Shown here piece after piece: positions 1 through 43,347 of a stretch of 64,000 bases of DNA (position 1 is the stretch's first letter; each line of letters starts with the position of its first letter). The notes under the pieces were generated by a model that was given only the letters and a program-made list of their open reading frames with translations, was not told the origin of the DNA and did not search any database. This DNA comes from an uncultured Thermoleophilia bacterium. GTDB taxonomy: Bacteria > Actinomycetota > Thermoleophilia > UBA2241. Location of the stretch: assembly GCA_963765635.1 (NCBI GenBank), contig CAVXXF010000002.1:210363-274362 (forward strand), in the 5' to 3' direction. Made by a program: the position numbers and the translations under genes.

Positions 1-1187
1 CGCAGGCGGCCGTTGACGTGCTCACCCATGACCTGGGGGTTGTTGATGATGAGCAGGGTGAACACCAGGATCACCGGCAGCAGGATGCCGTTGAGGGACT
101 GGGCAACGAGGATGACCTTGACCAGCGGCAGCCCCGGGATCACGGCCACGGCCGCGGGCACGAGCAGGAGGAACGTGATGATGCCGTTGAAGACTGGCGC
201 TTCGCGGAACGAGCTGTCGAGGCCCGACTCGAAGCCGAAGGCCTCGCAGACCACGTAGGCGGTGGCAAGCGGCAGCACGCCCGCGGCGAGGATCGAGACG
301 CTGAGCAGGCCGAGGCCGAACAGGTAGTGAGCGGCCGCGCCCAGGAAGGGTTCGAGCGCCATGGCCGCTTCCTGGGCCGACTCGACGACGATGCCTTCTT
401 TGTAGAGCGTCCCCGCGCAGGCCAGCACGATGAAGAAATCGACGGTCGTCATCATCACCGAGCCCACGTAGATCTCGTACTTCGTGTAGACGAACTGTCG
501 CAGGGAGATCTTCTTGTCGACCACCGCGGCCTGGATGAAGAACTGGCCCCAGGGCGTGAGTGTCGTACCCACGGCGGCGACCACGGTGAACAGCCAGAGG
601 CTGCTCATCTGCGCGTGAGGCACCAGCGCGCCGCGGGCGGCGCCCGACCAGTCGGGGCTCGCGAGGATGCCTGCGACGACGTAGGTCACGAGCACGAACC
701 CGAGCACGAGCAGCACGCGCTCGACCTTGCGGTAGGAGCCTCGCGTGACAAGAAACCAGAGGCCGACTGCCACGACCGGCACGCCCACGTACGAGGGCAC
801 GCCGAACAGGCCTCCGGCCGCGGCGACCCCCGAGAACTCGGCCACCGTGGTGCCGAAGTTGGCGATCACCGTGGCGAGGATCGCGAGAGCGGTCACCTTG
901 AGGCTGAAATTCTCGCGGATCAGGGCCGCCAGCCCGCGGCCGGTGACGACGCCCACACGCGCGTTCATCTCCTGCACGATGGCCAGCACGGGGGTGATCA
1001 GCACGAGGATCCAGATCATGCTGTAGCCGTACCGCGAGCCGATCACCGACCACGTGGTGATGCCGCCGGCGTCGTTGCCGGCGTTGGCGGCGATCAGGCC
1101 GGGGCCGACCATGCTCAGGATGATGAGCAGGCGCGTACGGCCGACGCGGCGGAGGACCCTGCCGCCGAGGTTGTCGCGAAGCCTCGT
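1..1187 (-). CDS. NRAMP (SLC11)-family divalent cation transporter; C-terminal part lies beyond the window edge. TM1/TM6 signature residues deviate from the canonical Mn2+/Fe2+ type (GNDAGG instead of DPGN; TTLTPWGQ instead of A..MPH), so possibly an NRMT-like (Mg2+) variant
   Basis: Own translation of the minus strand from a GTG at ~1187 gives a continuous hydrophobic ORF with no stop down to position 1: ...RTRLLIILSMVGPGLIAANAGNDAGGITTWSVIGSRYGYSMIWILVLITPVLAIVQEMNARVGVVTGRGL...TLTPWGQFFIQAAVVDKK.... The ORF-track entries 18..1196(+) and 22..1053(-) covering this DNA are Arg/His/Asp-rich wrong-frame artefacts. Confidence 0.7.
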
Positions 1188-1199
1188 CACGGCTGAGCC

Positions 1200-2492
1200 T
1201 TAGTGGAAGATCCTCGGCAGCCGTTTCTTCCAGGCAAGGGGGAGCACGAGGTCGATGGCGTCGTCGATGGTGATGATGCCGTGCAGCTCGCCGGCTGCAT
1301 CGACGATCGGCAGGGCGAGCAGGTTGTACTTGGCGATGACCTCGGTCACGGTCTCCTCGCTGGCGTCGGTGTCCACCGAGATGGGGTTCGCGGTCATGAA
1401 GTCGCGCACCTTCTTGTCGGGCGGCGTCGTGAGCAGGTCGCGCAGCGAGAACACGCCGCGCAGGTGCTCCGCGCGGTCGACCACGTAGATGTAATACACG
1501 GTCTCGACGTACTCTGCCTGCTGGCGAAGCCGCTGCGTAGCCTCTTCGGCGGTGTCATCGAGGCGCGCCCAGGCGTACTCGGTGGTCATGATGCCGCCGG
1601 CTGAGTGCTCGGGGTAGCTGAGCAGCTCGCACATGTCTTCGGCGTCGTCCTTCTCCATCATCGTGATGAAATGCGCGCGCCGGTCGTCGGGCAGGTCGGC
1701 GAGCAGGTCGGCGGCGTCGTCGGGCGACATCTCGTTGAGGATCTCGCTGGCCTTCTCGTCGGGCAGCTCGAGCAGCAGCGACGCCTGGTACGAGGAGTGG
1801 AGCTCCTCGAAGGTGTCGGCGGCGAGGTCGTCCTCGAGCGCGTCCAGCACGGCGGCGCGCTCGTCCGGCGAGAGCTCGTGGACGAGCTCAGCGATGTCGG
1901 CCGGATGCAGCAACTCGAGCCGGGTCTGGGGGACCGCGAGACGCACCGTGGCTTCGTCCGTGCGCTCCACGTCGACGTCCTTCCAGTCGATGAGGTGAGG
2001 ACGCGGGTTCTGGCGGCTCTTGGCGAGACGCTCGCTGACCTTGCCGAGCCCCACGCGGCGCAGGATCGCGCTGCTCGAGATGTCGACGGCGACGACGTGC
2101 ACGTCGGCGCCCATGCGCAGCAGCTGGATGTCGTTGACGCGGATGACCTTGCGGCCGTCGGTGTCGACCAGCTGCTTGTCGAGGAAGGTGCTCGAGAGGT
2201 GCAGTTCGTCGGCCTGCAGCTCGCGCGGCCCCAGGCGGCCGCGGGGCACGCGCAGCATGGTGCCCGACTCCTCGAAGCTGGTCACGTCGGGCCACGCCGC
2301 GTAAAGGGTCTTGCCGCGGCGGCGGATGCCGACGGCCGTGACCCGCGGGTACGCGTGGCCGGCCGTTGTGACCACCAGATCGTGCACCAAACCGGCCGGC
2401 GTGTCGTCGACGTCTCGCACTGGGCTGCCCAGCAGCTTGCTCAGAAAGAACACCGGCCTCACCTCCTCCGCGGTCGGTCGACCTCGAGACAC
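1200..2492 (-). CDS. Soluble MgtE-like regulatory protein: PRC-barrel-like N-terminus, MgtE_N domain, tandem CBS pair; no membrane domain
   Basis: 430-aa ORF. MgtE_N-like acidic helical region (ELLHPADIAELVHELSPDERAAVLDALEDD...LLADLPDDRRAHFI...GGIMTTEYAWARLDDT). Two CBS motifs (YIYVVDRAEHLRGVFSLRDLL...; ANPISVDTDASEETVTEVIAKYNLLALPIVDAAGELHGIITIDDAIDLV). Ends 3 nt before the start of the NRAMP gene at 1187. Confidence 0.75.
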   Translation of the reverse strand: MSRGRPTAEEVRPVFFLSKLLGSPVRDVDDTPAGLVHDLVVTTAGHAYPRVTAVGIRRRGKTLYAAWPDVTSFEESGTMLRVPRGRLGPRELQADELHLSSTFLDKQLVDTDGRKVIRVNDIQLLRMGADVHVVAVDISSSAILRRVGLGKVSERLAKSRQNPRPHLIDWKDVDVERTDEATVRLAVPQTRLELLHPADIAELVHELSPDERAAVLDALEDDLAADTFEELHSSYQASLLLELPDEKASEILNEMSPDDAADLLADLPDDRRAHFITMMEKDDAEDMCELLSYPEHSAGGIMTTEYAWARLDDTAEEATQRLRQQAEYVETVYYIYVVDRAEHLRGVFSLRDLLTTPPDKKVRDFMTANPISVDTDASEETVTEVIAKYNLLALPIVDAAGELHGIITIDDAIDLVLPLAWKKRLPRIFH

Positions 2493-2853
2493 ACAAAAGC
2501 CTCCCTCGCGGAAGGCTCCGTGCGCGCAGCAGGAGGGCGATCCTCACTCGTCCCAGCTTTAGCACAACATACCGTAGAGGTCAGGGCCTCAGCCGTCTTG
2601 GGCAAAACCTTGATCCGGTAGTGCCTGTCCTACCCGTTGGCGTCTCTGGACGTTTCCGGGCAACGGCCTCTATGTATGTCGGAGCCTCACCTAACGAGGA
2701 ACGCGCCGTAATTGACGCTCACGAAACGTACCTCCGCGCCCGCACGGTGTCAAGGCCGCGCGCGGGTGCTATACTGTGCCGCCGTAGGGGCCGGCGCGGT
2801 CAGGGCGCCGGCTTTCGTGCGAAGACTCAGAGAACCTCTCACGGGAAGCCCGC

Positions 2854-3819
2854 GTGATCATCACCGTCACACCTAACACCGCCGTCGACAAGACGCTCAC
2901 GGTGCCCAACTTCCAGACCGGCTTCAAGCACCGTGCCAGCGAGAGCATCTCGATGCCGGGCGGCAAGGGTGTCAACATCGCGCGCGCCCTCAAGACGCTC
3001 GGCCAGCCGGTGGTCGCCACCGGCCTTGTGGGCGGCCGCGCCGGTCTGCAGATCGTGGAGGGACTGCAGCGCGAGAACGTGCTCAACGACTTCGTGCACA
3101 TCGGCGGCGAGTCGCGCACGTCCACGGCCGTCGTCGACCCGACCACCATGACCCAGACCGAGATCATCGAGTACGGGCCGGTGGTCACGGCGCCGGAGGT
3201 CGCGGCCTTCTTCGAGAAGATCGAATACCTCGCCAAGGGCTCGCGTTTCGTCCTGCTCGTCGGCTCGCTGCCGCGCAAGATGCAGGAGGATTTTTACGCC
3301 GTCGTCATGCAGCGCGTGCGCCGGCACCGCTGCTTCGTCGTGCTCGACAGCGCCGGCGAGCCGCTGCGCCTGGGCATGAAGGGGCGCCCGCATCTCGTGG
3401 TCCCCAACCTGCGCGAGGCCGAAGACCTCGTCGGCCACGAGTTCCACGACGACCAGGACATCGTCGACGCCACGGCCATGCTCTGCGAGATGGGGGCGCG
3501 CAACGCCATCATCAAGACGCAGTACGGCTGCGTCGCCCGCTTCCAGGTGGGCCGCCGGCAGCGCGTCTTTCGCGCACGCATCGCGCCCCTCGAGAGCGTG
3601 GTGAGCACCGTCGGTTCGGGCGACGCCTTTCTCGCCGGCTTCGTGAGTGCGCGCTTCGAGAAGCTCGAGCTGCCGGAATGCCTGCGTCAGGCGCTGGCCG
3701 CCGGCGCCGCCAACACGCAGCGTTTCGGCGCCGGCGTACTGGATCCCGACGACGCCCGTCGTCTTCTCGACACCACCGACGTCGTCGAGCTCGACGACGC
3801 CGGGCACGCCGTCTCTTAG
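2854..3819 (+). CDS. PfkB-family carbohydrate kinase (1-phosphofructokinase / tagatose-6-phosphate kinase-like)
   Basis: 321 aa, GTG start. N-terminal MIITVTPNTAVDKTLTV...GGKGVNIARAL and C-terminal GSGDAFLAGF anion-hole motif typical of the ribokinase/PfkB fold. Confidence 0.8.
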   Translation: MIITVTPNTAVDKTLTVPNFQTGFKHRASESISMPGGKGVNIARALKTLGQPVVATGLVGGRAGLQIVEGLQRENVLNDFVHIGGESRTSTAVVDPTTMTQTEIIEYGPVVTAPEVAAFFEKIEYLAKGSRFVLLVGSLPRKMQEDFYAVVMQRVRRHRCFVVLDSAGEPLRLGMKGRPHLVVPNLREAEDLVGHEFHDDQDIVDATAMLCEMGARNAIIKTQYGCVARFQVGRRQRVFRARIAPLESVVSTVGSGDAFLAGFVSARFEKLELPECLRQALAAGAANTQRFGAGVLDPDDARRLLDTTDVVELDDAGHAVS

Positions 3820-5090: not shown

Positions 5091-6249
5091 ATGGAAGTAG
5101 AGATCGGCCGCGGCAAGAAGGGTCGCCGCGCCTACGGCTTCGACGACATCGCCATCGTACCCAGTCGCCGTACGCGCGACGCGGAGGACGTCGACATCAC
5201 CTGGAAGCTCGGCCCGCACACGCTGCCGCTGCCGTGCCTCGCCTCCGCCATGGACGGCGTGGTCGACCCGCAATTCGCCGTCACCATGGGCAAGCTCGGC
5301 GGCCTCGCGGTGCTCAACCTCGAGGGCGTGCAGACGCGCTACGAGAACGCCGACGAGCAGCTCGACCGCATCGCTGCGCTGCCCAAGGAGTCGGCCACTC
5401 GCACAATGCAGGAGATCTACAAGGCGCCCATCAAGCCCGAGCTGGTCGGCCGGCGCATCAAGGAGATCAAGGCCGGCGGCGTCCTGGCCGCCGCCTCGCT
5501 CACCCCGCAACGCGTCGAGGACTTCTACCAGATCGCCCTCGAGGCCGGCCTCGACGTGCTGATCATCCAGGGCACCGTGGTCTCGGCCGAGCACGTGAGC
5601 ACCAGGGTCGAGCCCCTCGACCTGCGCAAGTTCATCGCCCAGTGCCCCGTGCCGGTGATCGTCGGCGGCGTGGCCAGCTACGCCACCACGCTGCACCTCA
5701 TGCGCACCGGCGCCGTGGGCGTGCTCGTGGGCGTCGGCCCCGGTCACGCCTGTACGACGCGCGGCGTGCTCGGCATCGGCGTGCCGCAGGCCACGGCCAT
5801 CGCCGACGCCGCGGCGGCGCGCGTGCAGCACGTGCTCGAGACGGGCCAGTACTGTCACGTCATCGCCGACGGCGGCATGCGCACCGGCGGCGACGTCAGC
5901 AAGGCCATCGCCCTCGGCGCCGACGCGGTCATGATCGGCTCGCCGCTGGCCGCGGCCAGCGAAGCGCCCGGCCGCGGCTACCACTGGGGCATGGCCACCT
6001 TCCACCCCGAGCTCCCGCGCGGCACGCGCGTGAAGGCCGGGGTCAAGGGTACCCTCGAAGAGATCCTCCTCGGCCCGGCCCACGAGAACGACGGCACGCT
6101 CAACCTGTTCGGCGCGCTTGCGCACGAGCATGGCCACCTGTGGCTACGAGACGCTGAGCTCGTTCCAGAAGGCCGAGGTCATGGTGGCGCCGTCGCTGAT
6201 GACCGAGGGCAAGAAGCTGCAGAAGGAGCAAGACGTCGGCATGGGCTGA
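5091..6249 (+). CDS. guaB3: GuaB3-type IMP dehydrogenase-family protein (IMPDH catalytic barrel without CBS insert), with an apparent +1 frameshift near 6117-6121
   Basis: N-terminus MEVEIGRGKKGRRAYGFDDIAIVPSRRTRDAEDVDI...GKLGGLAVLNLEGV is typical of GuaB3. After ...NLFGAL the track frame reads non-protein-like AHEHGHLWLRDAELV.... The +1 frame (own translation) gives the conserved family C-terminus LRTSMATCGYETLSSFQKAEVMVAPSLMTEGKKLQKEQDVGMG*, stop ~6247-6249. Sits immediately upstream of guaA, as in Actinobacteria. Confidence 0.8.
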
Positions 6250-6300
6250 GGCCCGTCGCCGGCCAGCTGTACGCATTGACATCAGACTGAGGGAGGCGCC

Positions 6301-7857
6301 GTGGCGCAGGGCTCGCCGCAAGTGAAGGGGTTCGACACCGTGCTCGTCCTCGACTTCGGGGCGCAGTACGGGCAGCTCATCGCGCGTCGCGTGCGCGAGT
6401 GCCGCGTGTACTCGGAGCTCGTGCCGCACGATATGCCCATCGAGCGCATCAAGGCCTACGCGCCCAAAGGCATCATCCTCTCCGGCGGTCCCATGAGCGT
6501 GTACGTCGACGATGCCCCGCAGCTCGACCCCGAGATCCTCGAGCTGGGCATCCCGGTGCTGGGCATCTGTTACGGCATGCAGAGCCTCGCCCTCCACCTC
6601 GGCGGCACGGTGGCGCGCACCGACCTCAGCGAGTTCGGCAAGACGGCGCTCAGCGTGCTCCAGCCGGGGCTGCTCCTCGAGGGACTGCGTGGCGAGGAGC
6701 AGGCCTGGATGAGCCACCGCGACAGCGTCACCAAGGCGCCGCCCGGCTTCGAGGTGCTGGCCGCGAGCGCGGCTTCGCCCGTCGCGGCCATGGAGGCGCG
6801 CTCGCGGGGCTTCTACGGCGTGCAGTTCCACCCCGAGGTGCTGCACACGCCCAAGGGCACCGAGGTGCTCAAGAACTTCCTCTACAAGGCCTGCGGCTGC
6901 GCCCCCGCGTTCACCCCGGCCTCCATCATCGAGGAGTCCATCAAGCAGATCCGCGCCCAGGTCGGCGACAACAAGGCGATCCTGGGGCTCTCCGGAGGCG
7001 TCGACTCGTCGGTCGCCGCGCTGCTCATGTACAAGGCCATCGGCGAGCGCCTCACCTGCGTGTTCGTCGACCAGGGCATGATGCGCATGCGCGAGGCCGA
7101 ACGTGTGGTCGAGACCTTCGCCGGCACGTTCGGCATCCCGCTCATCGCAGTCGACGCCAGCGACCGCTTTCTCGACAAGCTTGAGGGCGTCACCGAGCCG
7201 GAGCGCAAGCGCAAGATCATCGGCGAGGAGTTCATCCGCTGCTTCGAGGAGGAGGCGCGCAAGCTTGTCGACGCCAGGTTCCTCGTGCAGGGGACGCTCT
7301 ATAGCGACGTCATCGAGAGTGGCACGCGCCAGGCCGCCAAGATCAAGAGCCACCACAACGTGGGCGGCCTCCCCGAGAAGATGGATTTCGCGCTCGTCGA
7401 GCCGCTGCGCTGGCTGTTCAAGGACGAGGTCCGCGCCGTCGGCGAGGAGCTCGGCCTGCCCGAGCGCATCGTGTGGCGCCAGCCGTTCCCCGGGCCCGGG
7501 CTCGCCATCCGCATCATCGGCGAGATCACGCGCGAGCGCGTCGACATCCTGCAGCGCGCCGATGCCATCGTGCAGGAGGAGATCCGCACGGCCGGCCTCT
7601 ACCGCGAGCTATGGCAGTGCTTCGCCATCCTGCCCGTGATCCGCAGCGTGGGCGTGCAGGGCGACGAACGCACCTACGGCTACCCGATCGCCATCCGGGC
7701 GGTCAAGAGCGACGATGCCATGACCGCCGACTGGGCGCACCTGCCGTACGACCTCCTCGAGACGCTCTCCTCGCGCATCATCAACGAGGTGCCCGAGGTC
7801 AACCGCGTGGTCTACGACATCTCGAGCAAGCCGCCGAGCACCATCGAGTGGGAGTAG
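6301..7857 (+). CDS. guaA: GMP synthase (glutamine-hydrolysing)
   Basis: 518 aa. Class-I glutamine amidotransferase domain ([19 protein letters not shown]...GICYGMQ) plus ATP-pyrophosphatase domain (SGGVDSSV). Full-length, no disruption. Confidence 0.95.
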
Positions 7858-7938
7858 GGTAGACCCTCGCCCTTAGCTCGGCCTTTCGGCGGTATACTCG
7901 GAGAGCAGGCCGAGACGGTCCCCGACCGGAGGTGCAGT

Positions 7939-8237
7939 GTGAGCGTGCACGTCGAGATCGAGCACGAGCGCGTCGCCGAGTTCTGCCGCCGCACCCCATC
8001 CAGCGTCTCGCCTTCTTCGGGTCCGTACTGCGCGCCGACTTCGGCCCGCGGAGCGACGTGGATGTGCTGGTGGAGTTTGCGCCCCAGTCCCAGGTCACAC
8101 TCCTCGACATGGTCCGCATGGAGGACGAACTGAGCGAGATCATCGGCCGCCGCGTCGACCTGCGTACCAAGGGTTTCCTCAGCCGCTACTTCCGTGACGA
8201 GGTCGTGGCCGAAGCCGAGGTCGAGTTTGTCGCGTAG
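7939..8237 (+). CDS. Minimal nucleotidyltransferase (MNT, Pol-beta superfamily) antitoxin-like protein; N-terminus and NTase core lie in two different frames (possible 1-nt indel near 7990-7997)
   Basis: Track ORF 7939..8133 begins protein-like MSVHVEIEHERVAEFCRR.... ORF 7932..8237 carries the NTase core HPIQRLAFFGSVLRADFGPRSDVDVLVEF but has an Arg-rich junk N-terminus. Joining the two at the cccc run restores a typical MNT. Confidence 0.65.
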
Positions 8238-33898: not shown

Positions 33899-35896
33899 CT
33901 ACGAGACGAGCTTCCGGTACAGGCGCAGGTAGCCGTCGACCATGCGCTCGACGGGGAACCGCTCCTCGACCCGGCGCGCGCCGGCAGCGGCGAGGGCGCG
34001 TGACAGTACGGGGTCGTCCAGAAGCCGGGCGACGGCACGGGCGAGCGCTGCCTCGTCGGCGGGATCGACGAGCAGACCGGTCGCTCCATCGACGACCACC
34101 TCAGGGAGGCCACCCACACGCGTGGCGACGACGGGCACGCCGAGCGCGAGCGCTTCCATCGCAGTCAGCCCCGAGGCCTCTGAGAGCGACGGGACGACCA
34201 CGACGTCGAGCGCCGCGAGCAGGGGTGGCACAGATTCCACGTAGCCGAGGAACTCGATACGGTCGGCCATGCCGAGTGCTGCGGCGAGTGCTCGCAGTTC
34301 GTCCTCGTCGGATCCGTGGCCCGCGACGACGAAGCGCACACCGGGATGGTCTGCGGCCAGGATCGCCGCGGCGCTGACGAAGTACTCAGCGCCCTTGATG
34401 CGCTCGAGGCGCCCGATGAAGCCGACGCGCGCACTCGCCTGGCGGAGTGCGACGGCACTCTCGCCCTCAGCGTCGCGCCTGAGCCGAGCGAGGTCGATAC
34501 CGTTGGGGATCACGGTGATCCTGCTCGCGGCGACCTTGTCTGCGACAAGTCCCGTCGCGACGGCCTGCGAGACCGCGACGAAGCGGGTGACGTAGCGTCG
34601 CGTCAACCGGTCGAGAGTCATGCGGAGGGCAGAAACGGCTGGCGCTTCCCCGTCTAGGCGCGCGGCACCAGGGACGACGTGGACCGTATTCACGACCGGC
34701 ATGCGGGCACGCGACCCCACCAGCCGCGCAATCAGGTTCGTCAAGTAGCCCGTCCCCTGGATGAGCTGACCGCCTCGCAGCCGGTCGGAGAGGAGGGTGA
34801 TGAGCGACGGCAGGCAGCGCAGCGTGAAGTCGACGGGGATGACGTCGACGCTCTCGAGATCGCGTGTCTCGCGTTCCAGCGCCGAGCCTGCCGCGCAAAC
34901 GACGCACGGCCTGACGTCCGCGGCCGACAACCCGCGCAGCAGGGCCAGAAGCTGCACTTCTCCGCCGCCGAGCGACGGCCCGGGGAAGTTGTTGATGAAG
35001 GCGACCGCGAGACCGCCGGTCACGGGGGCATGCTTGGCGGGCGCGCCCGCGCGCAGAGAACGGATACTCGCCGTGAGCCGTTCGAGAGCAGTCGGCCCAA
35101 CGGTCTTCGCGAGGATCTTCCTGACCGCGATGTTCCACTGCAGTCGCGTGGTGGAACGACGGGCCGCGGCGAGCTGGGAGTTGGAGAGCAGCCCGCTGCC
35201 CACGACCTCGGTGATGACGCGCAGGTCTGTCTCGCGCATGAGGAGGGCGTTCGCGGACTTCTGCACCGTGCCGCGCCGGTGGACGGACAGCGGTTGGGCG
35301 ATGTGCTGGTGCCTGAAGCCGTGGGCCAAGGCGAGCAGCCAGAACAGATAGTCCTCCGCGTAGATGCCTTCGCGGAAGCCGCCGACGGCATCGAAGACCT
35401 CGCGTCGGTACACCGCGCCGACGCCGTAGAAGCAGGCCGCGAGCAGCTCCTCAAGAACGCAGCCGGCGGGGTCCGCCCAGAGCGCTTGAGGTCGCGCCGT
35501 CTCCCGGCGGCCGTCCTCGTACTCGTACCATCCGTCGGACGTGAAGACCGAGGCCTCGGGGTTATCGCGGATGCAGGCGTCGAACGTGGCCAGATGATCG
35601 GGGAGCAACAGGTCGTCGGCCGAGAGCATCACCAGGAGGTCGCCGCGCGCGCTGGGTACCGCCGCGTTGTACGCGCCGCCGGAGCCGCGGTTCGCCTGGG
35701 ATACCACGTGGACGCGCGCATCCTCCCTGGCGAATCGCTCGGCGAGCCGAGCGTCGCCGTCCGTTGAGCCGTCGTCGACGATGACGAGCTCCCAGTCGGT
35801 GATGGTCTGCGCCTGTACCGACTCGATCGTCCCGGCCAGCGTGGCCTGGGCGTTGAATGCGGGGATCGTGACCGAGAAGCGCGGATTATCAGCCAT
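33899..35896 (-). CDS. Bifunctional glycosyltransferase: N-terminal GT2 fused to C-terminal GT4, intact copy A
   Basis: From MADNPRFSVTIPAFNAQATL...VIVDDGSTDG...SADDLL (GT2). GT4 part ...EASGLTAMEALALGVPVVATRVGGLPEVV. The track ORF begins 39 nt further upstream at an alternative start. Confidence 0.8.
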   Translation of the reverse strand: MADNPRFSVTIPAFNAQATLAGTIESVQAQTITDWELVIVDDGSTDGDARLAERFAREDARVHVVSQANRGSGGAYNAAVPSARGDLLVMLSADDLLLPDHLATFDACIRDNPEASVFTSDGWYEYEDGRRETARPQALWADPAGCVLEELLAACFYGVGAVYRREVFDAVGGFREGIYAEDYLFWLLALAHGFRHQHIAQPLSVHRRGTVQKSANALLMRETDLRVITEVVGSGLLSNSQLAAARRSTTRLQWNIAVRKILAKTVGPTALERLTASIRSLRAGAPAKHAPVTGGLAVAFINNFPGPSLGGGEVQLLALLRGLSAADVRPCVVCAAGSALERETRDLESVDVIPVDFTLRCLPSLITLLSDRLRGGQLIQGTGYLTNLIARLVGSRARMPVVNTVHVVPGAARLDGEAPAVSALRMTLDRLTRRYVTRFVAVSQAVATGLVADKVAASRITVIPNGIDLARLRRDAEGESAVALRQASARVGFIGRLERIKGAEYFVSAAAILAADHPGVRFVVAGHGSDEDELRALAAALGMADRIEFLGYVESVPPLLAALDVVVVPSLSEASGLTAMEALALGVPVVATRVGGLPEVVVDGATGLLVDPADEAALARAVARLLDDPVLSRALAAAGARRVEERFPVERMVDGYLRLYRKLVS

Positions 35897-38048
35897 CGAG
35901 GACCTCCCGGTAGACGTCGAGGATCTGCTCGGCAACCACGTCGGGTGCGAAGCGCGCTCTGCGCGTATCGGTGAAGCGCTCGCGGGTCGAACTCAGTGAA
36001 GTGGTCGAGCATCCAGTCGAGACCCTCCGCCAGCGCGTCGACGCTCATCGGCTCGACGAGCCGGCCGACCTCCGGGGTGACGAACTCCTCGGGCCCCCCG
36101 CAGCGCGTCGAGACCACCGGGCGGCCGCACATGAGTGACTCCGCTGCCGATACCGAGAAGGTCTCGTGCGTGCTGCTCACAACGGTGAACGCCGATTCCG
36201 CGAGAATCTCGGCGGACCTCCTCGGCGGACATCGCGGCCGGTGAACTCGACCACGTCGGCTGAGCCCAGCGAGACGGCGATCGCTTCGGCTCGGCGCTGC
36301 GACTCCCCGTCGCCCACGAGCCTGAGCCGGAAGTCAGTCCGCCGTCCCGCAGAGTCTTCACCGCCTGTAGCAGGCCGGGAGGTTCTTTGCGGGCCCCATG
36401 ACCGAGATATGCGCGATCGTGGACGTCGGCCGAGACGGCATCGGCGCGGGCTCTGACACCGGCACCACGTTGGGGATGACGACGGGATCCACGGCGAGGC
36501 CGGAGCTCCACGAGCCGGTCGGCCAGAAAGCGGCTCACCGCGATGGTGCGCGATGCGTCTCGCGCGAGTGGCCTGTAGCAGCGATGGGCACGACGCCCGG
36601 GTACCTGACGAGCTTGCGCTCGCTGGCGGCCAGATACTCCTCGGAGTGCTCGGTGACCACGTACGGGATGCCGTAGCGGCGCTTGATGGCTCGCGCGATG
36701 AGCCCGGCGGGCCACAGCGCCTGGACGTGGACGATGTCTGGGGTGCCCCAGGCGTCGCGCAGGGCGTCGAATGCGGCCAGGGCGGTGCGCCTGTATGTCA
36801 CCAGCCATCCGTAGCGTCCGGCGGACCCGGCACTGACGCGGACCACGACGGCCCCCCCCTCTCCCTCCACCGTTGCAGGAAGCGACGTCTTGCTTGGATC
36901 CAGGTGGAGGACCGCAACGTCCCCCCTCCGCGCGAGGGCGTGCACCTGCTGCTGGATGAATACCCCAGCTGTAGGGTTGCCGGCGCTCGGGAACCAGCTG
37001 GGGACGACCAGGATGCTCAACGCTCGCTCCACACCGCCGACGGCGTCGGTCGGTGGCGTCGACGCGCAAAGGCGATGCATCCTTGTCTCCAGCGACTTGC
37101 GAGCTTTGCTCTCGGCGATCAGCCGACGGATGGGCCTGAAGAGCCAGGTCACTCTGTGCGCGGCGGCAAGGATCTCTCGAGCTGCGCGCTTCCCGAGATA
37201 CCGCTCGAGCGACTCTCTGAGGCGATCGGCCTGGCGAGCGAGCTCCTGCTCCTGCGCCACCGTCACCACTTGACGACGCTTGGCATCAAGCGCCGCCTCC
37301 ACTCTGGAGGCCATCTGCGGAGTGAGCGGGCACTCCTGCAGGAGGGCGGCAAGAGACACGACGAGCGCCTCCGCGCCAGCAAGCGCGTCTTCGCTGCGCC
37401 GTCCGGCCCTGTCTTGCCTGTAGTTGTACAGCGGGGTAGGCAGATACAGCGCCTTGGCTCCCTGTGCCGTTGCTCTCAACCAGAAGTCGTAGTCTTCGCA
37501 GTGAATGCCTGACCGGAAGCCTCCGAGCTTCTGGTAGCGGTCGCGGCTGACCATCGCGCCGCCCACGGCGATGACGCACTCCGTAAGGAGGTCGATCAGG
37601 CCAAACGAAGTCACCACGGTAGAAGCGCTGAACAGCGACTCCCGACCGTTGCGCGCCTACGACCTTGAGGTTGGGGTGGTAGATGTCGTGGCCTGGGTGG
37701 CCGCGTATGAATGCGTCCATCGCACGAAGGTAGTCCGGGTGCAGCTCATCGTCGGCATCGAGAAAGCCCACGTAGTCCCGTGGCGCACAACCCGACACCG
37801 GTGTTGCGCCCTTGGGCGACGCCGTGGTTCTCTTGTCTAGCCACGACGATCCGTGGGTCAGTCGCCGCGTACCGTGTGGCGATGGCCTCAGTGCCGTCAG
37901 TCGATCCGTCGTCGACGACGACAAGGCTCCAGTCGGGGAGGCTCTGGGCGCGCACCGACTCAATGGCCGCGCCGATTGTCGCCTCGGCGTTGAATGCCGA
38001 CATCACGATCGAGTATGCGCGATCCGCGCGTGTCTTGACGGTGCCCAC
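35889..38048 (-). pseudogene. GT2-GT4 bifunctional glycosyltransferase paralog, copy B, shattered by at least 5 frame changes
   Basis: Homologous pieces in five different minus-strand frames: GT2 N-terminus (ORF 37746..38048: YSIVMSAFNAEATIGAAIESV...VVVDDGSTDG); GT2 middle (37286..37963: DYVGFLDADDELHPDYL); GT2 C-terminus plus GT4 N-terminus (36535..37617: ...CEDYDFWLRA...ILVVPSWFPS...); GT4 middle (35993..37069 frame); GT4 C-terminus (35629..36180: SAAESLMCGRPVVSTRCGGPEEF). The true C-terminal RFAPDVVAEQILDVYREVLDG* (own translation) mirrors copy A's RFPVERMVDGYLRLYRKLVS*. Confidence 0.7.
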
Positions 38049-38959
38049 GGCCAGGCTACTTCCGGGCTCCGCGGCCGCTCACGGATCTCACTGCGCGAGA
38101 GACGCCGGGCTCTCCGCTCGCCAAGCAGACGAAGTGCGAGTGTCAACGCAGCGCTGCGCAGGCGGCCTGGGGTGGACCGTGGAGACGGGTCGAGCTGAGC
38201 TATCAGGCGCTGCCGCTCCAGAACACACTCGTCGACGGCGCGGCGATCCTCAGCGGAGAGCGCGAAATCCCGCCGCAAGTCGGTCACCAGACGGATGTCA
38301 GACCGATACGCGGTCTCCAGACTCGCCGACTTCTGAGTCGCGCTCACCCTGTGCAGCGATAGAGGCTCAGGCAGGTAGCGGTGCCGCGCCCCCGAGGCCA
38401 TGGCGCGAAGCCAGAAGTCGTAGTCCTCTCCGAACACGTCTGAGCGGTAGCCGCCGACCGTTGCGAACAGCTCCCGGCGGTACACGGCGCCGACGCTGTA
38501 GAAGCACAGACGGATCACGTCGCCGAGTTCAAGGGAGTGGACCTCGTCTCGCTTTCCCGGAATGTAGACGAGCTTCCGAGAATCGCCCGGACTCCAGAAG
38601 TATCCGTTCGTCGAGTAGATGTCGTAGCCGCTCTCTCGCGTGATGAAGTCGTGCATCTTGGAGAGGTGCTCTGGCAACAGGATGTCATCCGCCGAGCAGA
38701 GAACGATGAAGTCACCGGCAGCGGCCACGACGCCTGAGTTGTAGGCGCCGGCAGAACCCCGATTGTCCTGGTGGACGATCCGTATGCGGGGGTCTTGCTT
38801 AGCGTATGTCGACGCGATTCGAAAGGTCCCGTCCGTGGAGCCGTCATCCACAACGACACATTCCCAGTCGCCAACCGACTGGGCCGTGATCGCTTCAAGC
38901 GTTGCGGCGAGCGTCGCCTCGGCATTGTAGGCGGGCACGATAATCGAGAAGAGAGGCAC
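38003..38959 (-). CDS. GT2-family glycosyltransferase, intact copy C
   Basis: MPLFSIIVPAYNAEATLAATLEAITAQSVGDWECVVVDDGSTDG...CSADDILLPEHL...GEDYDFWLRA. DxD motif and family pattern; 318 aa. Confidence 0.8.
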   Translation of the reverse strand: MPLFSIIVPAYNAEATLAATLEAITAQSVGDWECVVVDDGSTDGTFRIASTYAKQDPRIRIVHQDNRGSAGAYNSGVVAAAGDFIVLCSADDILLPEHLSKMHDFITRESGYDIYSTNGYFWSPGDSRKLVYIPGKRDEVHSLELGDVIRLCFYSVGAVYRRELFATVGGYRSDVFGEDYDFWLRAMASGARHRYLPEPLSLHRVSATQKSASLETAYRSDIRLVTDLRRDFALSAEDRRAVDECVLERQRLIAQLDPSPRSTPGRLRSAALTLALRLLGERRARRLSRSEIRERPRSPEVAWPWAPSRHARIAHTRS

Positions 38960-39334
38960 GTCGATCCCCTAGGCCCGGCTAACCGGGGCGCTGTCTGCAT
39001 GCCGGCCTGAGTCTCAACGGCCGGATCGTCCAGGAGACGGAATGAAAGACCCCCGAGACGGGATCGGCCAGACGTGCGCCGACGACCTTTGCGACGCCGG
39101 TGCGAAGACGCTGGGGCTGCTCCTCCAGCCTGATCTCGGCAGCCTCCGCGAACGAGAAGAAACGCCGCCTCGCCAAGCGTCTTCGGCCTGTCGCCGAACT
39201 CAGCGCGGGCGGCGCCGGGGTGGACAGAGAAGACAAGGTGTTCACGTTCGACATGCCACAGGAGTGGGTCGCCCGGCTCATCTGGTCGCTCCTGCTTCTC
39301 TCTCCAGAACACGCGACGTCCTTTGCACGTGAAG

Positions 39335-40222
39335 CTACGACCGGCCCGAGACTGCAGCATCTGAGTGCTCCCGCGCCAGTTGCTCGAGCATCTCGTCCCA
39401 GTTCGGCGGAGTCCACCCCGTGCGCTCGCGGAAACGCGTGCTGTCGAGCGAGCGGTCGATGAGCGGCTCGTCCGCCGCGATGAGGTCCACGTCCCACCCG
39501 AGGTAGCCGGCGAGTCTGGCGAGCAGCGTGTACTTGTCGACAGGGTCCGCGGATACGTGCCAGAGGCCGCACAGGCTCTCGTCCGGCAGGATCACGTCGC
39601 GGATGAGGACGGTGAGCGCCTGCGTGGTCAAGCCGCTGAACACGGCTTTCGCGAAACCCGTGAGCGCCTCGGTGCGGTGGGCGGCGAACCAGCCCACCAG
39701 CCCGGTGGGTGCGCCGAGCTGCCAGCCGACGATGGACGTGCGAAGGGTGACGACGTGGTCGCGGTCGATGACCTCACCCAGCAGCTTCGAGCGGCCGTAG
39801 AGGTCGAAGGCGTCGGGCGCATCGTCCTCGGTGTAGCTTCCTCGCGCGCCGCTGAACACGCAGTCGGTGCTCACGTGCACCATGCGGGCACCATGAGCGG
39901 CGCAGGCGTCCGCGAGCACGTGCGGCCAGAGGCTGTTGACCGTGATGGAGGGGATGGCGGCCTTGGCGGCGGCGAGCTGCTTGACGATGCCGACGGCGTT
40001 GAGCACGAGGTCGGGCTTCACGCGCTCGACGAGAGCGTGTGCCGAAGTGCCATCGGTGGCGTCGAGACCGCCGAGCATTCGCTCGGCGGGTACGCCCAGG
40101 TCAGAGAGCGCTTCGGGATCGCGGCACGCACCCCACACCTTGAAGTCCGCGGCCAGTACGCGGATGGCCTCGTGGCCCAGCATCCCGCTGGCGCCGATCA
40201 CCAGGATGCGGGGTGCGCTCAC
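39335..40222 (-). CDS. RmlD/FnlB(Cap5F)-like NAD(P)-dependent sugar-nucleotide reductase
   Basis: MSAPRILVIGASGMLGHEAIRVL. SDR Rossmann fold. YxxxK in the ...DLYGRSKLLGE context. Confidence 0.75.
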   Translation of the reverse strand: MSAPRILVIGASGMLGHEAIRVLAADFKVWGACRDPEALSDLGVPAERMLGGLDATDGTSAHALVERVKPDLVLNAVGIVKQLAAAKAAIPSITVNSLWPHVLADACAAHGARMVHVSTDCVFSGARGSYTEDDAPDAFDLYGRSKLLGEVIDRDHVVTLRTSIVGWQLGAPTGLVGWFAAHRTEALTGFAKAVFSGLTTQALTVLIRDVILPDESLCGLWHVSADPVDKYTLLARLAGYLGWDVDLIAADEPLIDRSLDSTRFRERTGWTPPNWDEMLEQLAREHSDAAVSGRS

Positions 40223-41295
40223 GCGAGTCCCAGTACGATCCTCGCGACGACGTCGGAGACGTTCTCAGCGAGGTACTCGGCCGGCGGGTTCCACGTGCCG
40301 GCGGAGCGGACGGCGAGGTCGATCGCCGGCAGAATGCGCTCAGCCTCGACGCCGGCCAGCAGGTTGCTGCCGCACTCGATGGTCTCGGGCCGCTCTGTGA
40401 CATCGCGCATCGTGACCGTGGGCACACCGAAGATGCAGCATTCTTCCTGCACTGTTCCGCTGTCGGAGAGTACGCAGAACGCTTCCTTCTCGAGGCGCAC
40501 GAAATCAAAAAGCCCAAGAGGCGGGACGAAGCCGATCTTGCCGGCCTCCATGCCGAACTGCTGCATCTTGTCGGCCGTGCGTGGGTGCAACGAGGCCAGA
40601 ATCGGCAGGTCGTACTTCGCGATCGTCCGGTTGAGCGCCTCGATCAGGGCCGCGAGTCGCTCGGGATCGTCCACGGTCTCGGCGCGATGGGCGGTGACCA
40701 GGAAGTACTTGCCCGGCTCCACGCCGAACGTTGTGAAAGGGTCGGCCGCGTCGATCTGTGGGGCGTAGTGGTCCAGCACTTCCTTGATGGGGTTGCCGGT
40801 GACGTAGATTCTCCGGCGTTCGATGCCCTCGCGCACGAGATTCTCGGCGCTCCGATGCGTGTACGGCATCAGGACGGTGCTGGAATGGTCGATGACGCGG
40901 CGGTTGACCTCTTCCGGTACGCGGTCGTCATAGCAGCGGTTGCCGGCCTCCATGTGACAGACGCGGATGCCCATGCGCTTGGCCACGAATGCGGCGAGGC
41001 CGGTGTTGGTGTCGCCGAGGATGAGGACTGTGTCGGGGCTCTCCGCGCGGAAGAGCTCTTCGCATCTGGCGAGTATCTGCCCGATCTGATCGGCGAACCC
41101 CGCACCGCGCACGCCCATGAAGAGGCCGGGCTCACGCAGCCCGAGATCGCGGAAGAACATGCCGCTCAGCCGGTCGTCGTAGTTCTGGCCGGTGTGGACG
41201 AGCAGGTGCTCGCACGAAGCATCAAAGACTGGAATCACTCGCGAGAGACGGATGATCTCGGGCCGCGTGCCCAGCAGCGTGATGACCTTGGCCAC
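40219..41295 (-). CDS. UDP-N-acetylglucosamine 2-epimerase (non-hydrolysing; FnlC/Cap5G-like)
   Basis: MAKVITLLGTRPEIIRLSRVI...HTGQNYD...VLILGDTNT...HMEAGNRC. Classic WecB-family motifs. Confidence 0.85.
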   Translation of the reverse strand: MAKVITLLGTRPEIIRLSRVIPVFDASCEHLLVHTGQNYDDRLSGMFFRDLGLREPGLFMGVRGAGFADQIGQILARCEELFRAESPDTVLILGDTNTGLAAFVAKRMGIRVCHMEAGNRCYDDRVPEEVNRRVIDHSSTVLMPYTHRSAENLVREGIERRRIYVTGNPIKEVLDHYAPQIDAADPFTTFGVEPGKYFLVTAHRAETVDDPERLAALIEALNRTIAKYDLPILASLHPRTADKMQQFGMEAGKIGFVPPLGLFDFVRLEKEAFCVLSDSGTVQEECCIFGVPTVTMRDVTERPETIECGSNLLAGVEAERILPAIDLAVRSAGTWNPPAEYLAENVSDVVARIVLGLA

Positions 41296-41296
41296 G

Positions 41297-42352
41297 TTAC
41301 GCCTCCAGGTAGCGCTCGCCGAGGACCTCGGGGACCTTACTTGCGAGGAAGCCGGCGAGCTCCTCGGTGCTCATCAGCGCGTTCGCCGAACCGTAGTCGC
41401 CGACGAGCGCCGGCTCGTCGACCGGACCAGCCAGCTCGGGGAGCATGGGGCGAAGCGCGAAGTAGCCCTCCTGCCCGTGGATGGTGCGGGTGGCTTCTTC
41501 TTCGGAGAGCAGGATCTCGTGGATCTTCTCTCCGGGGCGGATACCGGTGACGACCATCTCGATGTCGCGGTCGCCGATGAGGTAGGCGGCGAGGTCGGTC
41601 ATCCTGGCGCTTGGGCAGCGCGGGATGTAAGTCTCACCGGCTGCCCCGGATCGCACCGCCGCGAAGATCGTGTCTACAGCGTCCTCGAGCGTCAAGAGGA
41701 AGCGCGTCATGTCTGAGGTCGTGATGGTGACCGGGCCGCCGGCGGCGATCTGATCGAGGAACAGCGGCACCACGGAGCCGCGCGAGGCCAGCACATTGCC
41801 GTATCGCGCGCAGATGAAGCGCGTCTGCGGGCAATGGATGTTGCCGTCGATGTAGACGCGCTCCTGGATGGCCTTGGTCATGCCCATGACATTGACCGGC
41901 TTGCACGCCTTGTCGGTGGAGATGCCAACGACGGTCTCGACCGGCAGATGCGACTCCGCGATGGCTCGCACGAGATTCACGGCGCCTTCGACGTTCGTGC
42001 GGCAGGCCTCCCATGGGTAGTACTCGCAGCTCGGGACCTGCTTGAGGGCCGCCGCGGCGAAGACGATGTCGGCCTTCTCGGCGGCGCGAACGACACTCGC
42101 GTAGTCACGCACGTCCCCGATCATGAACTTCAGCCGCTGTCTGCTGTTCTCGAAGATGACTTCGTCGGTGGCGGCGCTCTGGTTCATGAAATCCAGACGC
42201 ATGTAGTGCTGCTTGGCTTCGTCCCGCGAGAAGACGGTGACGCTCTCAGGGACGCCCTCGGCGCCGGTCATCAGACGACGCGTGAGCACCTGCCCGAGCG
42301 AGCCGGTGCCTCCTGTGATGAGGATGCGTTTGCCTTCGAACATGCCTGCCAT
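41297..42352 (-). CDS. UDP-GlcNAc 4,6-dehydratase/epimerase (FnlA/CapD/Cap5E-like short polysaccharide-biosynthesis protein)
   Basis: KRILITGGTGSLGQVLTRRL...FMIGDVRD...GMTKAIQE. Extended-SDR pattern of the CapD subfamily. Confidence 0.8.
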   Translation of the reverse strand: MAGMFEGKRILITGGTGSLGQVLTRRLMTGAEGVPESVTVFSRDEAKQHYMRLDFMNQSAATDEVIFENSRQRLKFMIGDVRDYASVVRAAEKADIVFAAAALKQVPSCEYYPWEACRTNVEGAVNLVRAIAESHLPVETVVGISTDKACKPVNVMGMTKAIQERVYIDGNIHCPQTRFICARYGNVLASRGSVVPLFLDQIAAGGPVTITTSDMTRFLLTLEDAVDTIFAAVRSGAAGETYIPRCPSARMTDLAAYLIGDRDIEMVVTGIRPGEKIHEILLSEEEATRTIHGQEGYFALRPMLPELAGPVDEPALVGDYGSANALMSTEELAGFLASKVPEVLGERYLEA

Positions 42353-42832
42353 CGTCGATACCCCTGTCCGATTCGCTGCTGGGCGCCCCGCAATTCGAGC
42401 GGCTTCTGCATTCTAGACCATGTGGACCAGCCCGACGCCTGAGTGCGTAGTCTGGCGCGGGACGCGGTGCGAGTGCCGGGCCTTGCCGAGGAGGCCGCCC
42501 GCGACCTGGTGCGCGCCCGTGAGGACGCCTGCGGCGACCTGATGGGCGCGCGGCACTGGCGGCGGCACTGTTCCGCGGAGCATTGCAGCTTCGGGCCGGG
42601 CTACCTGGCGCCCCCTGAGTAGACCATCAAACGTCTCCGGCAAACGTCCACCTTGTCGCACGCTCGCGAGATGCTACTCTGGGATAGCACGCCGAAGATG
42701 CCTCCTTGCTTGCCACCAAGACCTCCGCCCCGAGGCGCTCATGGCGGTCACCGGCAAGCAGCGCATAGGGTAGATGGGCGGTCCATCAGCGGTGACTCGC
42801 TGTACTGACGTCAATCGGAAAGGAGATCCTCG

Positions 42833-43060
42833 ATGCATGGAATGGAAGAAATAATCGAAGAAGCGGAATGTCTTCCTGTTGAAGAACGGGTCATAGTCAT
42901 CGATTCCCTGCTCCGAACGATCAATCCACCTCTGGCCGAAGTCGAGATCGAATGGATCATGGTCGCCAAACGCCGTCTCGCCGAGCTGCGATCCGGCCAG
43001 GTAACGGCTGTTCCCGGGAATGAGGTGTTCGCCAAGATCCGTGACCGTTTCGAGACATGA
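42833..43060 (+). CDS. Putative addiction-module antitoxin (small acidic protein preceding a ParE/RelE toxin)
   Basis: 75 aa. MHGMEEIIEEAECLPVEERVIVIDSLLRTINPP...VAKRRLAELRSGQV. Local GC markedly lower than the surroundings. Confidence 0.6.
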   Translation: MHGMEEIIEEAECLPVEERVIVIDSLLRTINPPLAEVEIEWIMVAKRRLAELRSGQVTAVPGNEVFAKIRDRFET

Positions 43061-43347
43061 CCTTTTCGTTTCACCCCGAGGCAGAAGAGGACTTACGCTC
43101 AGCCATCGACCACTATGAGTGTCTCGAAGCCGGCCTTGGCCACGAATTCTCCCTTGAAGTCCTCACAGCCATCTACAGCATCGTCACGCACCCGAATGCC
43201 TGGCCGGTCATAGAAGACGACGTTCGTCGTTGCCTTGTGAACCGTCTTCCCTTCGGCGTTCTCTACAGCCTCGAACCGACGAGCATCTTCGTTCCTGCAG
43301 TGATGCATCACCGGAGGCGGCCCGGCTACTGGAAGAACAGAGAATAG
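43057..43347 (+). CDS. ParE/RelE-superfamily toxin
   Basis: 96 aa. ATGA overlap with the antitoxin. ...AIDHYECLEAGLGHEFSLEV...RRCLVNRLPFGVLYSLEPTSIFVPAVMH is typical of ParE/RelE. Confidence 0.65.
   Translation: MTFSFHPEAEEDLRSAIDHYECLEAGLGHEFSLEVLTAIYSIVTHPNAWPVIEDDVRRCLVNRLPFGVLYSLEPTSIFVPAVMHHRRRPGYWKNRE

Follow-up and report, generated by a model that had tools for sequence, protein, structure and literature searches.

What does a soluble protein built like the cytoplasmic part of an MgtE channel do next to a carrier of the NRAMP (SLC11) family? The question was raised by one end of the window, that is, the whole 64,000-nt stretch of DNA from an uncultured Thermoleophilia bacterium that was analyzed here. 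We consider it highly probable that positions 1-2753 (minus strand) form a two-gene operon for Mg2+ acquisition and that it belongs to the type reported in 2014 by Shin et al. (PLoS Genet, PMC4072509). In the operon, a gene for an NRAMP-related Mg2+ transporter (NRMT) follows a gene for an MgtE-like partner.

The two genes adjoin on the minus strand, with the soluble-protein gene upstream, where the earlier note had placed them. The partner gene (positions 1200-2453, minus strand; 417 aa plus stop, assigned from Pfam, the 2YVY match, and homologue lengths) ends with a TAA codon at 1202-1200, and the transporter gene begins in the same frame at GTG 1190, its sole possible start. The gap is therefore 9 nt and not the 3 nt that had been reported; the codon 3 nt past the stop is TCA. 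The partner start had been put at GTG 2492 (430 aa), but it is most likely GTG 2453 (417 aa), because homologues among the matches listed were 416-417 aa long, a Shine-Dalgarno sequence (GGAGGAGG, 2462-2469, minus strand) lies 8 nt upstream, and GTG 2492 falls within the terminator U-tract. This Shine-Dalgarno sequence was conserved among the aligned relatives (alignment columns 113-120). The transporter gene (1-1190, minus strand; Pfam Nramp and 7QIA matches) is visible for its first 396 codons, because the C-terminus (approximately 25-30 aa) lies beyond the window edge; a complete gene, 92% identical, was found at locus L001 (5220-6530). Plus-strand open reading frames at 18-1196 and 1605-2621 overlap both genes. 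They were rejected as antisense shadows, because third-position GC in the minus-strand frames was 0.93 for the transporter and 0.92 for the partner.

Profile searches of the kind suggested in the earlier note matched Pfam Nramp, MgtE_N, and CBS at the locus. The partner matched MgtE_N (PF03448, 1.5e-27; helical domain, aa ∼176-282, positions 1928-1608, minus strand) and two CBS domains (PF00571, 9.3e-19; CBS pair, aa 285-403, positions 1601-1245, minus strand), and the Pfam search found no match in it to the MgtE pore domain PF01769. The TIGR00400 match was confined to profile positions 25-251 of 450 (189 bits vs. a cut-off of 232.75), and the protein ends 14 residues beyond the CBS pair; thus, it is not an MgtE channel. 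Its best solved match was the cytosolic domain of Thermus thermophilus MgtE (2YVY, E = 4e-38). The AF2 model of the partner (mean pLDDT 87.4) could be superposed on the cytosolic domain of MgtE in its Mg2+-bound form (target TM-score 0.84-0.86, rmsd approximately 2 Å). As had been claimed from the reading frame, the partner reproduces the cytoplasmic module of MgtE without its pore; the possibility that a transmembrane domain had been missed was answered by the lack of a pore domain and by the clean stop followed by the NRMT start in the same frame. The approximately 170 residues ahead of MgtE_N correspond to two predicted PRC-like β-barrels (aa 1-67, positions 2453-2253, and aa 83-172, positions 2207-1938, minus strand), which were all-beta modules with pLDDT mostly >90 in the model. 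The Pfam PRC profile (PF05239) scored 28.8 bits over the whole protein (gathering score 21.2), with no single stretch passing alone, and reached up to 4e-11 in relatives.

The partner has several of the carboxylates with which MgtE binds Mg2+. When 36 diverse partners were compared at the MgtE positions (site numbering as in PMC5882242), acidic residues were found at D95 in all 36, at D91 and D247 in 35 each, at D250 in 33, and at E59 in 30. Thus, the carboxylates of Mg4 (D91/D247), Mg6 (D95), and Mg7 (E59) are retained. Mg5 is half kept: its D226 is Asn in 22 of the 36 and also in the window partner. The plug-helix ligands E258 and D259 (Mg2, Mg3) are Lys or Arg in partners (Lys-Lys in the window partner), so the gating geometry of MgtE is not literally transferable. 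MgtE-like ATP sensing by the CBS pair was considered and judged unlikely to be conserved, because, of the two ATP contacts, F227 is Leu in 31 of the 36 partners and N203 is variable. Following the CBS pair, exactly where MgtE joins its sensor to its pore, the acidic plug helix is replaced by a conserved basic tail of the form LPxxWKKRLPRxF (LPLAWKKRLPRIFH in the window partner, aa 404-417, positions 1244-1203, minus strand).

Adjacency of the partner and NRMT genes was near-obligate in both directions, and the two-gene unit proposed earlier is thus conserved. The partner loci came from genomes of Actinomycetota, Chloroflexota, Dormibacterota, Nitrospirota, Firmicutes, Deltaproteobacteria, and Methanobacteriaceae. 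Of the 73 that were informative, 68 had an NRMT gene (66 immediately downstream, 1 directly upstream, and 1 in what is read as a pair disrupted by an indel). Among the informative NRMT loci from metagenomes, 72 of 74 had a partner gene. An NRMT gene was absent within 4 kb of the partner gene in 6 of the 73 loci (approximately 8%), where the neighbors were unrelated. The paired genes were tightly spaced or overlapping, and the pair was found at well over a hundred loci in many phyla, with roughly 130 natural pairs collected. [quoted passage not shown] Co-expression of Acp2976 with Acp2977 of Acidobacterium capsulatum, the sole pair tested, had no visible effect (PMC4072509). The regulatory role is thus a published, unproven hypothesis.

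The partner might instead buffer Mg2+ or serve as its chaperone, aid assembly or stability, or act as a sensor on other targets; it would then be co-transcribed only as a member of the low-Mg2+ regulon, without gating the NRMT. The chaperone suggestion, the negative co-expression result, and the orphan partner genes all fit this explanation, as do the complementation of Mg2+ transport by NrmT genes without the MgtE-like protein (PMC4072509) and transport by EleNRMT alone in proteoliposomes (PMC8806188). Such a role does not readily account for near-obligate adjacency in both directions, for the tight spacing or overlap of the genes, or for a conserved, partner-specific tail at the sensor-pore junction of MgtE. 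Moreover, full-length PRC-MgtE channels share the same cytoplasmic module, which argues for gating as the ancestral job of the module. We regard a nongating partner as unlikely, and gating of the NRMT by the partner as the preferred, though uncertain, reading.

The transporter itself is, judged from its sequence, a member of the NRMT clade, with all published binding-site residues present. Its match to Pfam Nramp (PF01566; 2.6e-83) spanned nearly the whole profile (positions 1-356 of 357). The closest solved relative was EleNRMT (7QIA; E = 7e-103, 348 bits), with an alignment that was gapless over transporter residues 20-391 (372 residues); every other solved SLC11 protein scored ≤98 bits, and canonical MntH structures matched with 1e-20 or weaker. 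In the minus-strand frame the TM1 sequence is AGNDAGG and the TM6 sequence is GTTLTPWGQ; they contain the very GNDAGG and TTLTPWGQ that had been noted in place of DPGN and MPH. Their interpretation as NRMT-type substitutions was upheld both by the suggested alignment with EleNRMT and by the DxxG-TxxT motif, which conforms to the DxxG-TxxA/T signature that Ramanadane et al. gave for NRMTs in 2022 (PMC8806188). The DxxG of α-1 is D40-A-G-G43, in place of DPGN, with D40 and G43 invariant in 21 relatives, and the TxxT of α-6 is T209-T-L-T212, in place of AxxM. W214 and I219 occupy the two proton-pathway His positions of α-6b, and Q364 and E118 also agree with the NRMT definition (PMC8806188).

A full-length M-box (ykoK-type) Mg2+ riboswitch aptamer was found upstream of both genes at 2536-2705 (minus strand). 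The match to the covariance model RF00380 covered model positions 1-169 of 169 (150.2 bits vs. a gathering score of 44, E = 3e-34), and the 3′-end of the aptamer lies 82 nt from the partner GTG 2453 on the same strand. The closest relatives (L001-L003, L081-L083, L085, and L086) have an M-box at the same position. Approximately 20 nt upstream of the riboswitch, a putative promoter was recognized by eye (2725-2753, minus strand; TTGACA 2753-2748, a 17-nt spacer, and TACGTT 2730-2725); the weakness of its -10 hexamer kept this site out of the promoter scan results. Between the aptamer and the Shine-Dalgarno sequence, the terminator scan identified an expression platform of the intrinsic-terminator type (2488-2518, minus strand), with a hairpin GAGCCUUCC-GCGA-GGGAGGCUU followed by UUGUGUGU (-14.6 kcal/mol). 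When folded individually, 14 of 14 M-box loci gave a hairpin and U-run in this interval, with differing stem sequences. When the expression platforms were aligned with MAFFT and folded jointly, RNAalifold gave a weak consensus (-9 kcal/mol) in which CCCUCCU pairs with AGGGAGG. This consensus was not accepted as a replacement for the simple hairpin, because per-sequence folding produced the hairpin and U-run in every case; the CCCUCCU/AGGGAGG pairing may be a competing anti-terminator.

The order of elements is thus promoter-like site, M-box, intrinsic terminator, PRC-MgtE_N-CBS gene, 9-nt gap, and NRMT gene. The M-box with its terminator hairpin, the approximately 170 N-terminal residues of the partner, and the precedent of Shin et al. 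were all absent from the earlier note.

An alternative concerning the substrate is that the transporter is mainly an importer of Mn2+ (or another transition metal) and that the partner senses that metal instead of Mg2+. Acp2977 fully rescued a Mn2+-uptake defect, whereas its rescue of a Mg2+ defect required millimolar Mg2+ (PMC4072509); EleNRMT also carries Mn2+ (PMC8806188); and the Met-equivalent residue of the window transporter is Thr instead of Ala, a TxxT variant that might prefer Mn2+ to Mg2+. However, the operon is headed by a high-scoring M-box, and Shin et al., who found that an M-box-associated NrmT rescues a Mg2+-transport-deficient strain, regarded an M-box as the mark of those NrmT proteins that transport Mg2+ (PMC4072509). 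In the surveys, 10 of 80 and 7 of 80 loci had an M-box upstream of the pair, including all close relatives with upstream DNA, and M-boxes precede TxxT loci (L001-L003, L066, L075, and L076) and TxxA loci (L038, L054, and L058) alike. Furthermore, T209 was invariant among the relatives compared, and its equivalent in EleNRMT, T224, is required for Mg2+ transport (PMC8806188). A mainly Mn2+-importing transporter is therefore improbable, and Mg2+ is retained as the probable substrate.

Under the preferred reading, both genes would be transcribed when Mg2+ is low. At high cytoplasmic Mg2+ the aptamer would compact, the terminator would form, and transcription would stop ahead of the genes, as expected from the established behavior of M-box RNAs. 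By extrapolation from EleNRMT and CabNRMT, the NRMT would take up Mg2+ in hydrated form, as well as Mn2+, with no coupling to protons. The partner would bind Mg2+ at the kept interface sites between its N-domain and CBS pair (equivalents of Mg4, Mg6, and Mg7), close up like the MgtE cytosolic domain, and dock through its basic C-terminal tail, possibly also through the PRC barrels, on the cytoplasmic face of the NRMT or on the membrane. Once docked at replete Mg2+, it would shut off uptake and so provide a fast post-translational brake atop the slower riboswitch control. This brake, from Mg2+ binding through closure and docking to the shut-off of uptake, is the least certain step of the mechanism, and we give it an even chance of being correct. 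To the more specific proposal, in which the partner physically complexes the NRMT through LPxxWKKRLPRxF, and possibly the PRC barrels, and closes the carrier when Mg2+ occupies Mg4, Mg6, and Mg7, we give somewhat less than an even chance. If this were true, an MgtE-type sensor would have been moved from a channel pore to a LeuT-fold transporter as a detachable subunit. Feedback regulation has been suggested in print before, but such a complex, its docking element, and its mechanism have not.

The earlier note had taken the locus for an undescribed arrangement in which an MgtE sensor was newly grafted onto an SLC11 carrier. The searched literature contained neither structural nor biochemical work on the partner-NRMT pair, nor any mention of a PRC barrel together with MgtE, and the only papers that it yielded besides Shin et al. 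2014 ignore the partner. Nevertheless, Shin et al. had already described the pairing, its frequent co-transcription behind an M-box, and the feedback hypothesis (PMC4072509), and with the pair present at more than a hundred loci in many phyla, novelty of the arrangement is very improbable. The locus is a real, well-conserved operon type described in 2014, with nothing new in kind. That the partner is a truncated or pseudogenized MgtE, with its pore lost or misread, can be dismissed: its closest relatives do include ∼600-aa PRC + MgtE_N + CBS proteins fused to a PF01769 pore, but 2,776 database proteins matched it at E ≤ 1e-10, nearly all of the best 120 being 414-428 aa long, its stop is clean with the NRMT start next in the same frame, its third-position GC is typical of a functional gene, and its conserved C-terminal tail is distinct from the MgtE plug helix.

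NRMTs constitute a fourth bacterial Mg2+ uptake route. Structural work on EleNRMT treated the carrier in isolation, whereas in the surveys it almost never occurred without its MgtE-like partner. The locus reinforces the question posed in 2014 about the role of the partner, which keeps interface carboxylates of the MgtE Mg2+ sites yet has a basic tail where MgtE has its plug helix, and it supplies residues and a tail motif for mutation.

In the KtrA/TrkA systems, RCK rings on KtrB/TrkH likewise represent a cytoplasmic ligand-sensing protein that is encoded beside a membrane subunit and gates it. The similarity to the partner-NRMT pair is one of concept only, an analogy; the folds and ligands are unrelated, and a complex of the NRMT pair is hypothetical.

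Closer parallels are the Ca_c0685 and Ca_c3329 operons of Clostridium acetobutylicum and their relatives (PMC4072509), which have the same order of M-box, MgtE-fragment gene or genes, and NrmT gene and the same proposed logic. In Ca_c0685 the MgtE-like part is split over two small genes, whereas the window has a single 417-aa protein, with two N-terminal PRC-like barrels that are unmentioned in the searchable part of the text of Shin et al. The hosts of these operons are Clostridia or Deltaproteobacteria, and the window host is a high-GC, Thermoleophilia-like member of the Actinomycetota; its transporter has the TxxT variant of the binding site, unlike the C. acetobutylicum-type operons. Acp2976/Acp2977 of A. 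capsulatum share with the window an MgtE-like fragment gene directly upstream of an NrmT-group gene; however, no riboswitch precedes the A. capsulatum pair, which acted as a Mn2+ transporter, whereas the window locus has a strong M-box. EleNRMT of Eggerthella lenta (7QIA/7QIC, PMC8806188), which was studied without any partner protein, has a TM1 motif (AGNDAGG) identical to that of the window transporter. Equivalents of its T224, W229, Q379, and E133 are all present in the window transporter, and the proton-pathway His residues are absent from both. The Met-equivalent position is Ala in EleNRMT and Thr in the window transporter, both of which the DxxG-TxxA/T motif permits.

The partner has the fold of N-domain and CBS pair in common with the cytoplasmic domain of T. 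thermophilus MgtE (2YVY/2YVX/5X9G). It differs in having no transmembrane pore, in the replacement of the plug helix EAEATEDI by its basic tail, in the substitution of D226 by Asn and of the ATP-stacking F227 by Leu, and in the approximately 170 extra N-terminal residues of the PRC-like barrels. Full-length PRC-MgtE channels (∼600 aa; e.g., P0135, P0138, and P0149) have the same PRC + MgtE_N + CBS architecture, with 39-42% identity over residues 1-403, and are as close to the window partner as other soluble partners are. Beyond this module the channels have an acidic plug helix and then the PF01769 pore, whereas the window partner terminates in its basic tail and is accompanied by an SLC11-fold carrier.

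The locus is a newly found, high-GC actinobacterial member of the known M-box/MgtE-like fragment/NrmT operon type. The observation in the earlier note was confirmed, with minor corrections: the identities of the two proteins and the two-gene unit stood, but the claim that the arrangement was undescribed did not, since both the arrangement and the feedback hypothesis had already been reported by Shin et al. 2014 (PLoS Genet; PMC4072509), who coined the name NrmT. In that study, M-box-associated NrmT members rescued a Mg2+-transport-deficient B. subtilis strain, the MgtE-like gene of C. acetobutylicum was in two pieces, and co-expression made no difference for the pair from A. capsulatum. The partner protein was not discussed in the later NRMT/SLC11 papers PMC8806188, PMC9606685, and PMC10606218.

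Both genes are on the minus strand. The partner gene, with its probable start at GTG 2453, ends at TAA 1202-1200, and the transporter gene extends from GTG 1190 to the left edge of the window (396 codons visible), with a 9-nt gap between them and the same reading frame. GTG 1190 was the sole start codon between the in-frame TAA and the first transmembrane helix of the transporter. Codon-position GC (GC3 of 0.93 and 0.92) marked the minus-strand frames as coding; thus, the large plus-strand ORFs over the two genes were ruled out as antisense shadows. ORF prediction gave a 430-aa partner from GTG 2492. This start was disfavoured because homologues are 416-417 aa long, a Shine-Dalgarno sequence (GGAGGAGG, 2462-2469) is located 8 nt 5′ of GTG 2453, and GTG 2492 sits within the terminator U-tract; the partner is therefore most likely 417 aa long.

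The transporter matched Pfam Nramp (2.6e-83). Its top match among all solved structures was EleNRMT (7QIA; E = 7e-103, 348 bits), with a gap-free alignment of 372 residues, whereas canonical MntH/DMT/NRAMP structures scored ≤98 bits. NRMTs are defined by the binding-site motif DxxG-TxxA/T rather than DxxN-AxxM, have the two α-6b histidines replaced by Trp and Asn, conserve a Gln on α-10, and need Thr T224 for Mg2+ transport (Ramanadane et al. 2022; PMC8806188). The corresponding region of our transporter contained D40-A-G-G43, T209-T-L-T212, W214, I219, Q364, and E118. The transmembrane residues GNDAGG and TTLTPWGQ read in the earlier note matched the sequence exactly, and the NRMT assignment was right, as indicated by the DxxG/TxxT motif, W214, Q364, and EleNRMT as the top structure.

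The partner matched MgtE_N (1.5e-27), two CBS domains and, weakly, a PRC-barrel, and the Pfam search found no MgtE pore domain in it. The NCBIfam MgtE equivalog matched it over the cytoplasmic half of the equivalog only, at a score below the cut-off, and the top solved relative was 2YVY (4e-38), the cytosolic domain of T. thermophilus MgtE. These matches bear out the proposal of an MgtE_N and CBS protein without a pore. AlphaFold2, given 36 diverse homologues, predicted two modules of beta structure throughout, at aa 1-67 and at aa 83-172, followed by a helical N domain, the CBS pair, and a short C-terminal tail modelled with low confidence (mean pLDDT 87.4); the model superposed on Mg2+-bound MgtE cytosolic domains with a target TM-score of 0.84-0.86 (rmsd ∼2 Å). 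Public records in the 90% cluster of the partner, from Actinomycetota MAGs, are named "CBS domain-containing protein," "magnesium transporter," or "YlmC with PRC-barrel domain."

The adjacency of partner and NRMT was conserved, although gene order was not strictly so. An alignment of 36 diverse partners returned 80 loci from species-representative genomes. An NRMT was directly downstream on the same strand in 66 of these and directly upstream in one; six had no NRMT within 4 kb, six ended at a contig edge and were uninformative, one was a full-length MgtE, and one (L069) was read as an indel-disrupted pair. The independent, reciprocal survey (alignment of 21 NRMTs, metagenome collection, 80 loci) found the partner directly upstream in 67/80 loci, upstream across a gap in two, directly downstream in three, and absent in two, with six uninformative. 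The lack of a conserved gene pairing, named in the earlier note as a result that would refute it, was thus clearly not borne out. Hosts were Actinomycetota/Thermoleophilia (the nearest, 79-89% identity), Chloroflexota, Dormibacterota, Nitrospirota, Firmicutes, Deltaproteobacteria, and Methanobacteriaceae. Every NRMT of the genome survey had the DxxG/TxxA-or-T motif, with ExxG occasionally replacing DxxG.

Several loci departed from the usual layout. The order was reversed, with NRMT first and the partner directly downstream, in L029, L119, L124, and L138, and in L026 (3998-7941), one of the 66 loci above, two NRMT paralogues in tandem (5292-6572 and 6646-7941) came after a single partner gene. 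Partner genes without an NRMT within 4 kb (L030, L039, L044, L055, L060, and L064) had unrelated neighbours, e.g., uvrB/uvrA-like, SMC-like, and TRAP-transporter genes; L094 and L158 had an NRMT without a partner within the DNA available. In L069 (3671-6782, long-read MAG), the two frames seemed run together or frameshifted: the partner match did not go beyond residue 297, and the match to NRMT began in the same long ORF region. An assembly indel is a likelier cause than natural fusion, and the most likely one.

Absent from the earlier note was a full-length aptamer of the M-box Mg2+ riboswitch at 2705-2536 (-) (150 bits; Rfam gathering score 44), the one element that Rfam found in the 64-kb window. 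Its 3′ end is 82 nt from the partner start. The interval between aptamer and Shine-Dalgarno sequence contains the hairpin GAGCCUUCC-GCGA-GGGAGGCUU, followed by UUGUGUGU. Hairpin and U-run were also present at this place in close relatives and in distant M-box-bearing loci, with different stem sequences in both. This leader has the classical M-box OFF-switch layout, and its transcription would be expected to respond to Mg2+. A promoter-like site (TTGACA-17-TACGTT), read by eye only, lies ∼20 nt 5′ of the M-box.

CCCUCCU (2531-2537, -), directly 3′ of the aptamer P1 strand, can pair with AGGGAGG (2499-2505, -), the 3′ arm of the terminator hairpin. RNAalifold favoured this pairing, with several compensatory changes, and it may represent an anti-terminator or other alternative conformer; CCUCCU could also pair with the Shine-Dalgarno sequence.

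A covariance model from nine M-boxes, used on both sets of surveyed loci, placed an M-box 5′ of the partner gene in 10/80 genome loci and 7/80 metagenome loci, including all close relatives of the window having upstream DNA. Both TxxT and TxxA transporter variants were found with M-boxes. A Pelosinus MAG (L066) had two tandem full-length aptamers (3278-3455 and 3596-3767; 163 and 161 bits) preceding its partner-NRMT pair. The response of tandem riboswitches is usually steeper and more digital.

Around the operon lie unremarkable chromosomal genes (pfkB, a guaB-like gene, guaA, genes of amino-acid metabolism, and an exopolysaccharide cluster); GC content is uniform (0.64-0.72), and neither tRNAs nor signs of a mobile element were found in the context of the two genes. 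The pfkB-family sugar kinase gene (2854-3819, +) is divergent from the riboswitch operon, and its promoter-like site (GTGTCA-17-TATACT, 2747-2775, +) overlaps that of the operon on the opposite strand. The exopolysaccharide-type cluster (33902-48282), unrelated to the NRMT operon, encodes a glycosyltransferase in which GT2 and GT4 are fused, a priming transferase (Bac_transf), and a TPR-repeat protein resembling Wzy_C/O-antigen ligase.

What the analysis contributes is specific residues and a tail motif that bear on the putative role of the partner. MgtE sites were taken from Maruyama et al. 2018 (PMC5882242) and Tomita et al. 2017 (PMC5529423), and the register came from a HMMER alignment to 2YVY, confirmed by labelled isoleucines (I28, I84, I190, I242, and I260). 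Among 36 diverse partners, the equivalents of D91 (Mg4), D95 (Mg6), D247 (Mg4), D250 (Mg5), and E59 (Mg7) were acidic in 35, 36, 35, 33, and 30, respectively, and that of D226 (Mg5) was Asn in 22. On these residues, the sensor core looks intact. ATP sensing is doubtful because the equivalent of F227 (adenine stacking) was Leu in 31/36 and that of N203 (ATP contact) was variable.

Among the closest relatives of the partner are ∼600-aa proteins in which PRC, MgtE_N, and CBS are fused to a PF01769 pore domain. Three of these (P0135, P0138, and P0149; 599-604 aa), full-length MgtE with an N-terminal PRC-barrel, were as similar to the window partner as other soluble partners were. The C-terminal extensions (200-340 aa) of three longer relatives (P0163, P0198, and P0259; 607-749 aa) had no Pfam match at 1e-3. 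The ∼600-aa channels retain an acidic plug helix (EEAxEDI) like that of T. thermophilus MgtE, whose sequence past residue 252 agrees with the E258/D259/I260 labels of Maruyama et al. 2018, whereas soluble partners end there in LPxAWKKRLPRxF. The element linking sensor to pore in MgtE thus appears to have been swapped in the partner for a basic, Trp-containing tail, plausibly a docking or membrane-anchoring element.
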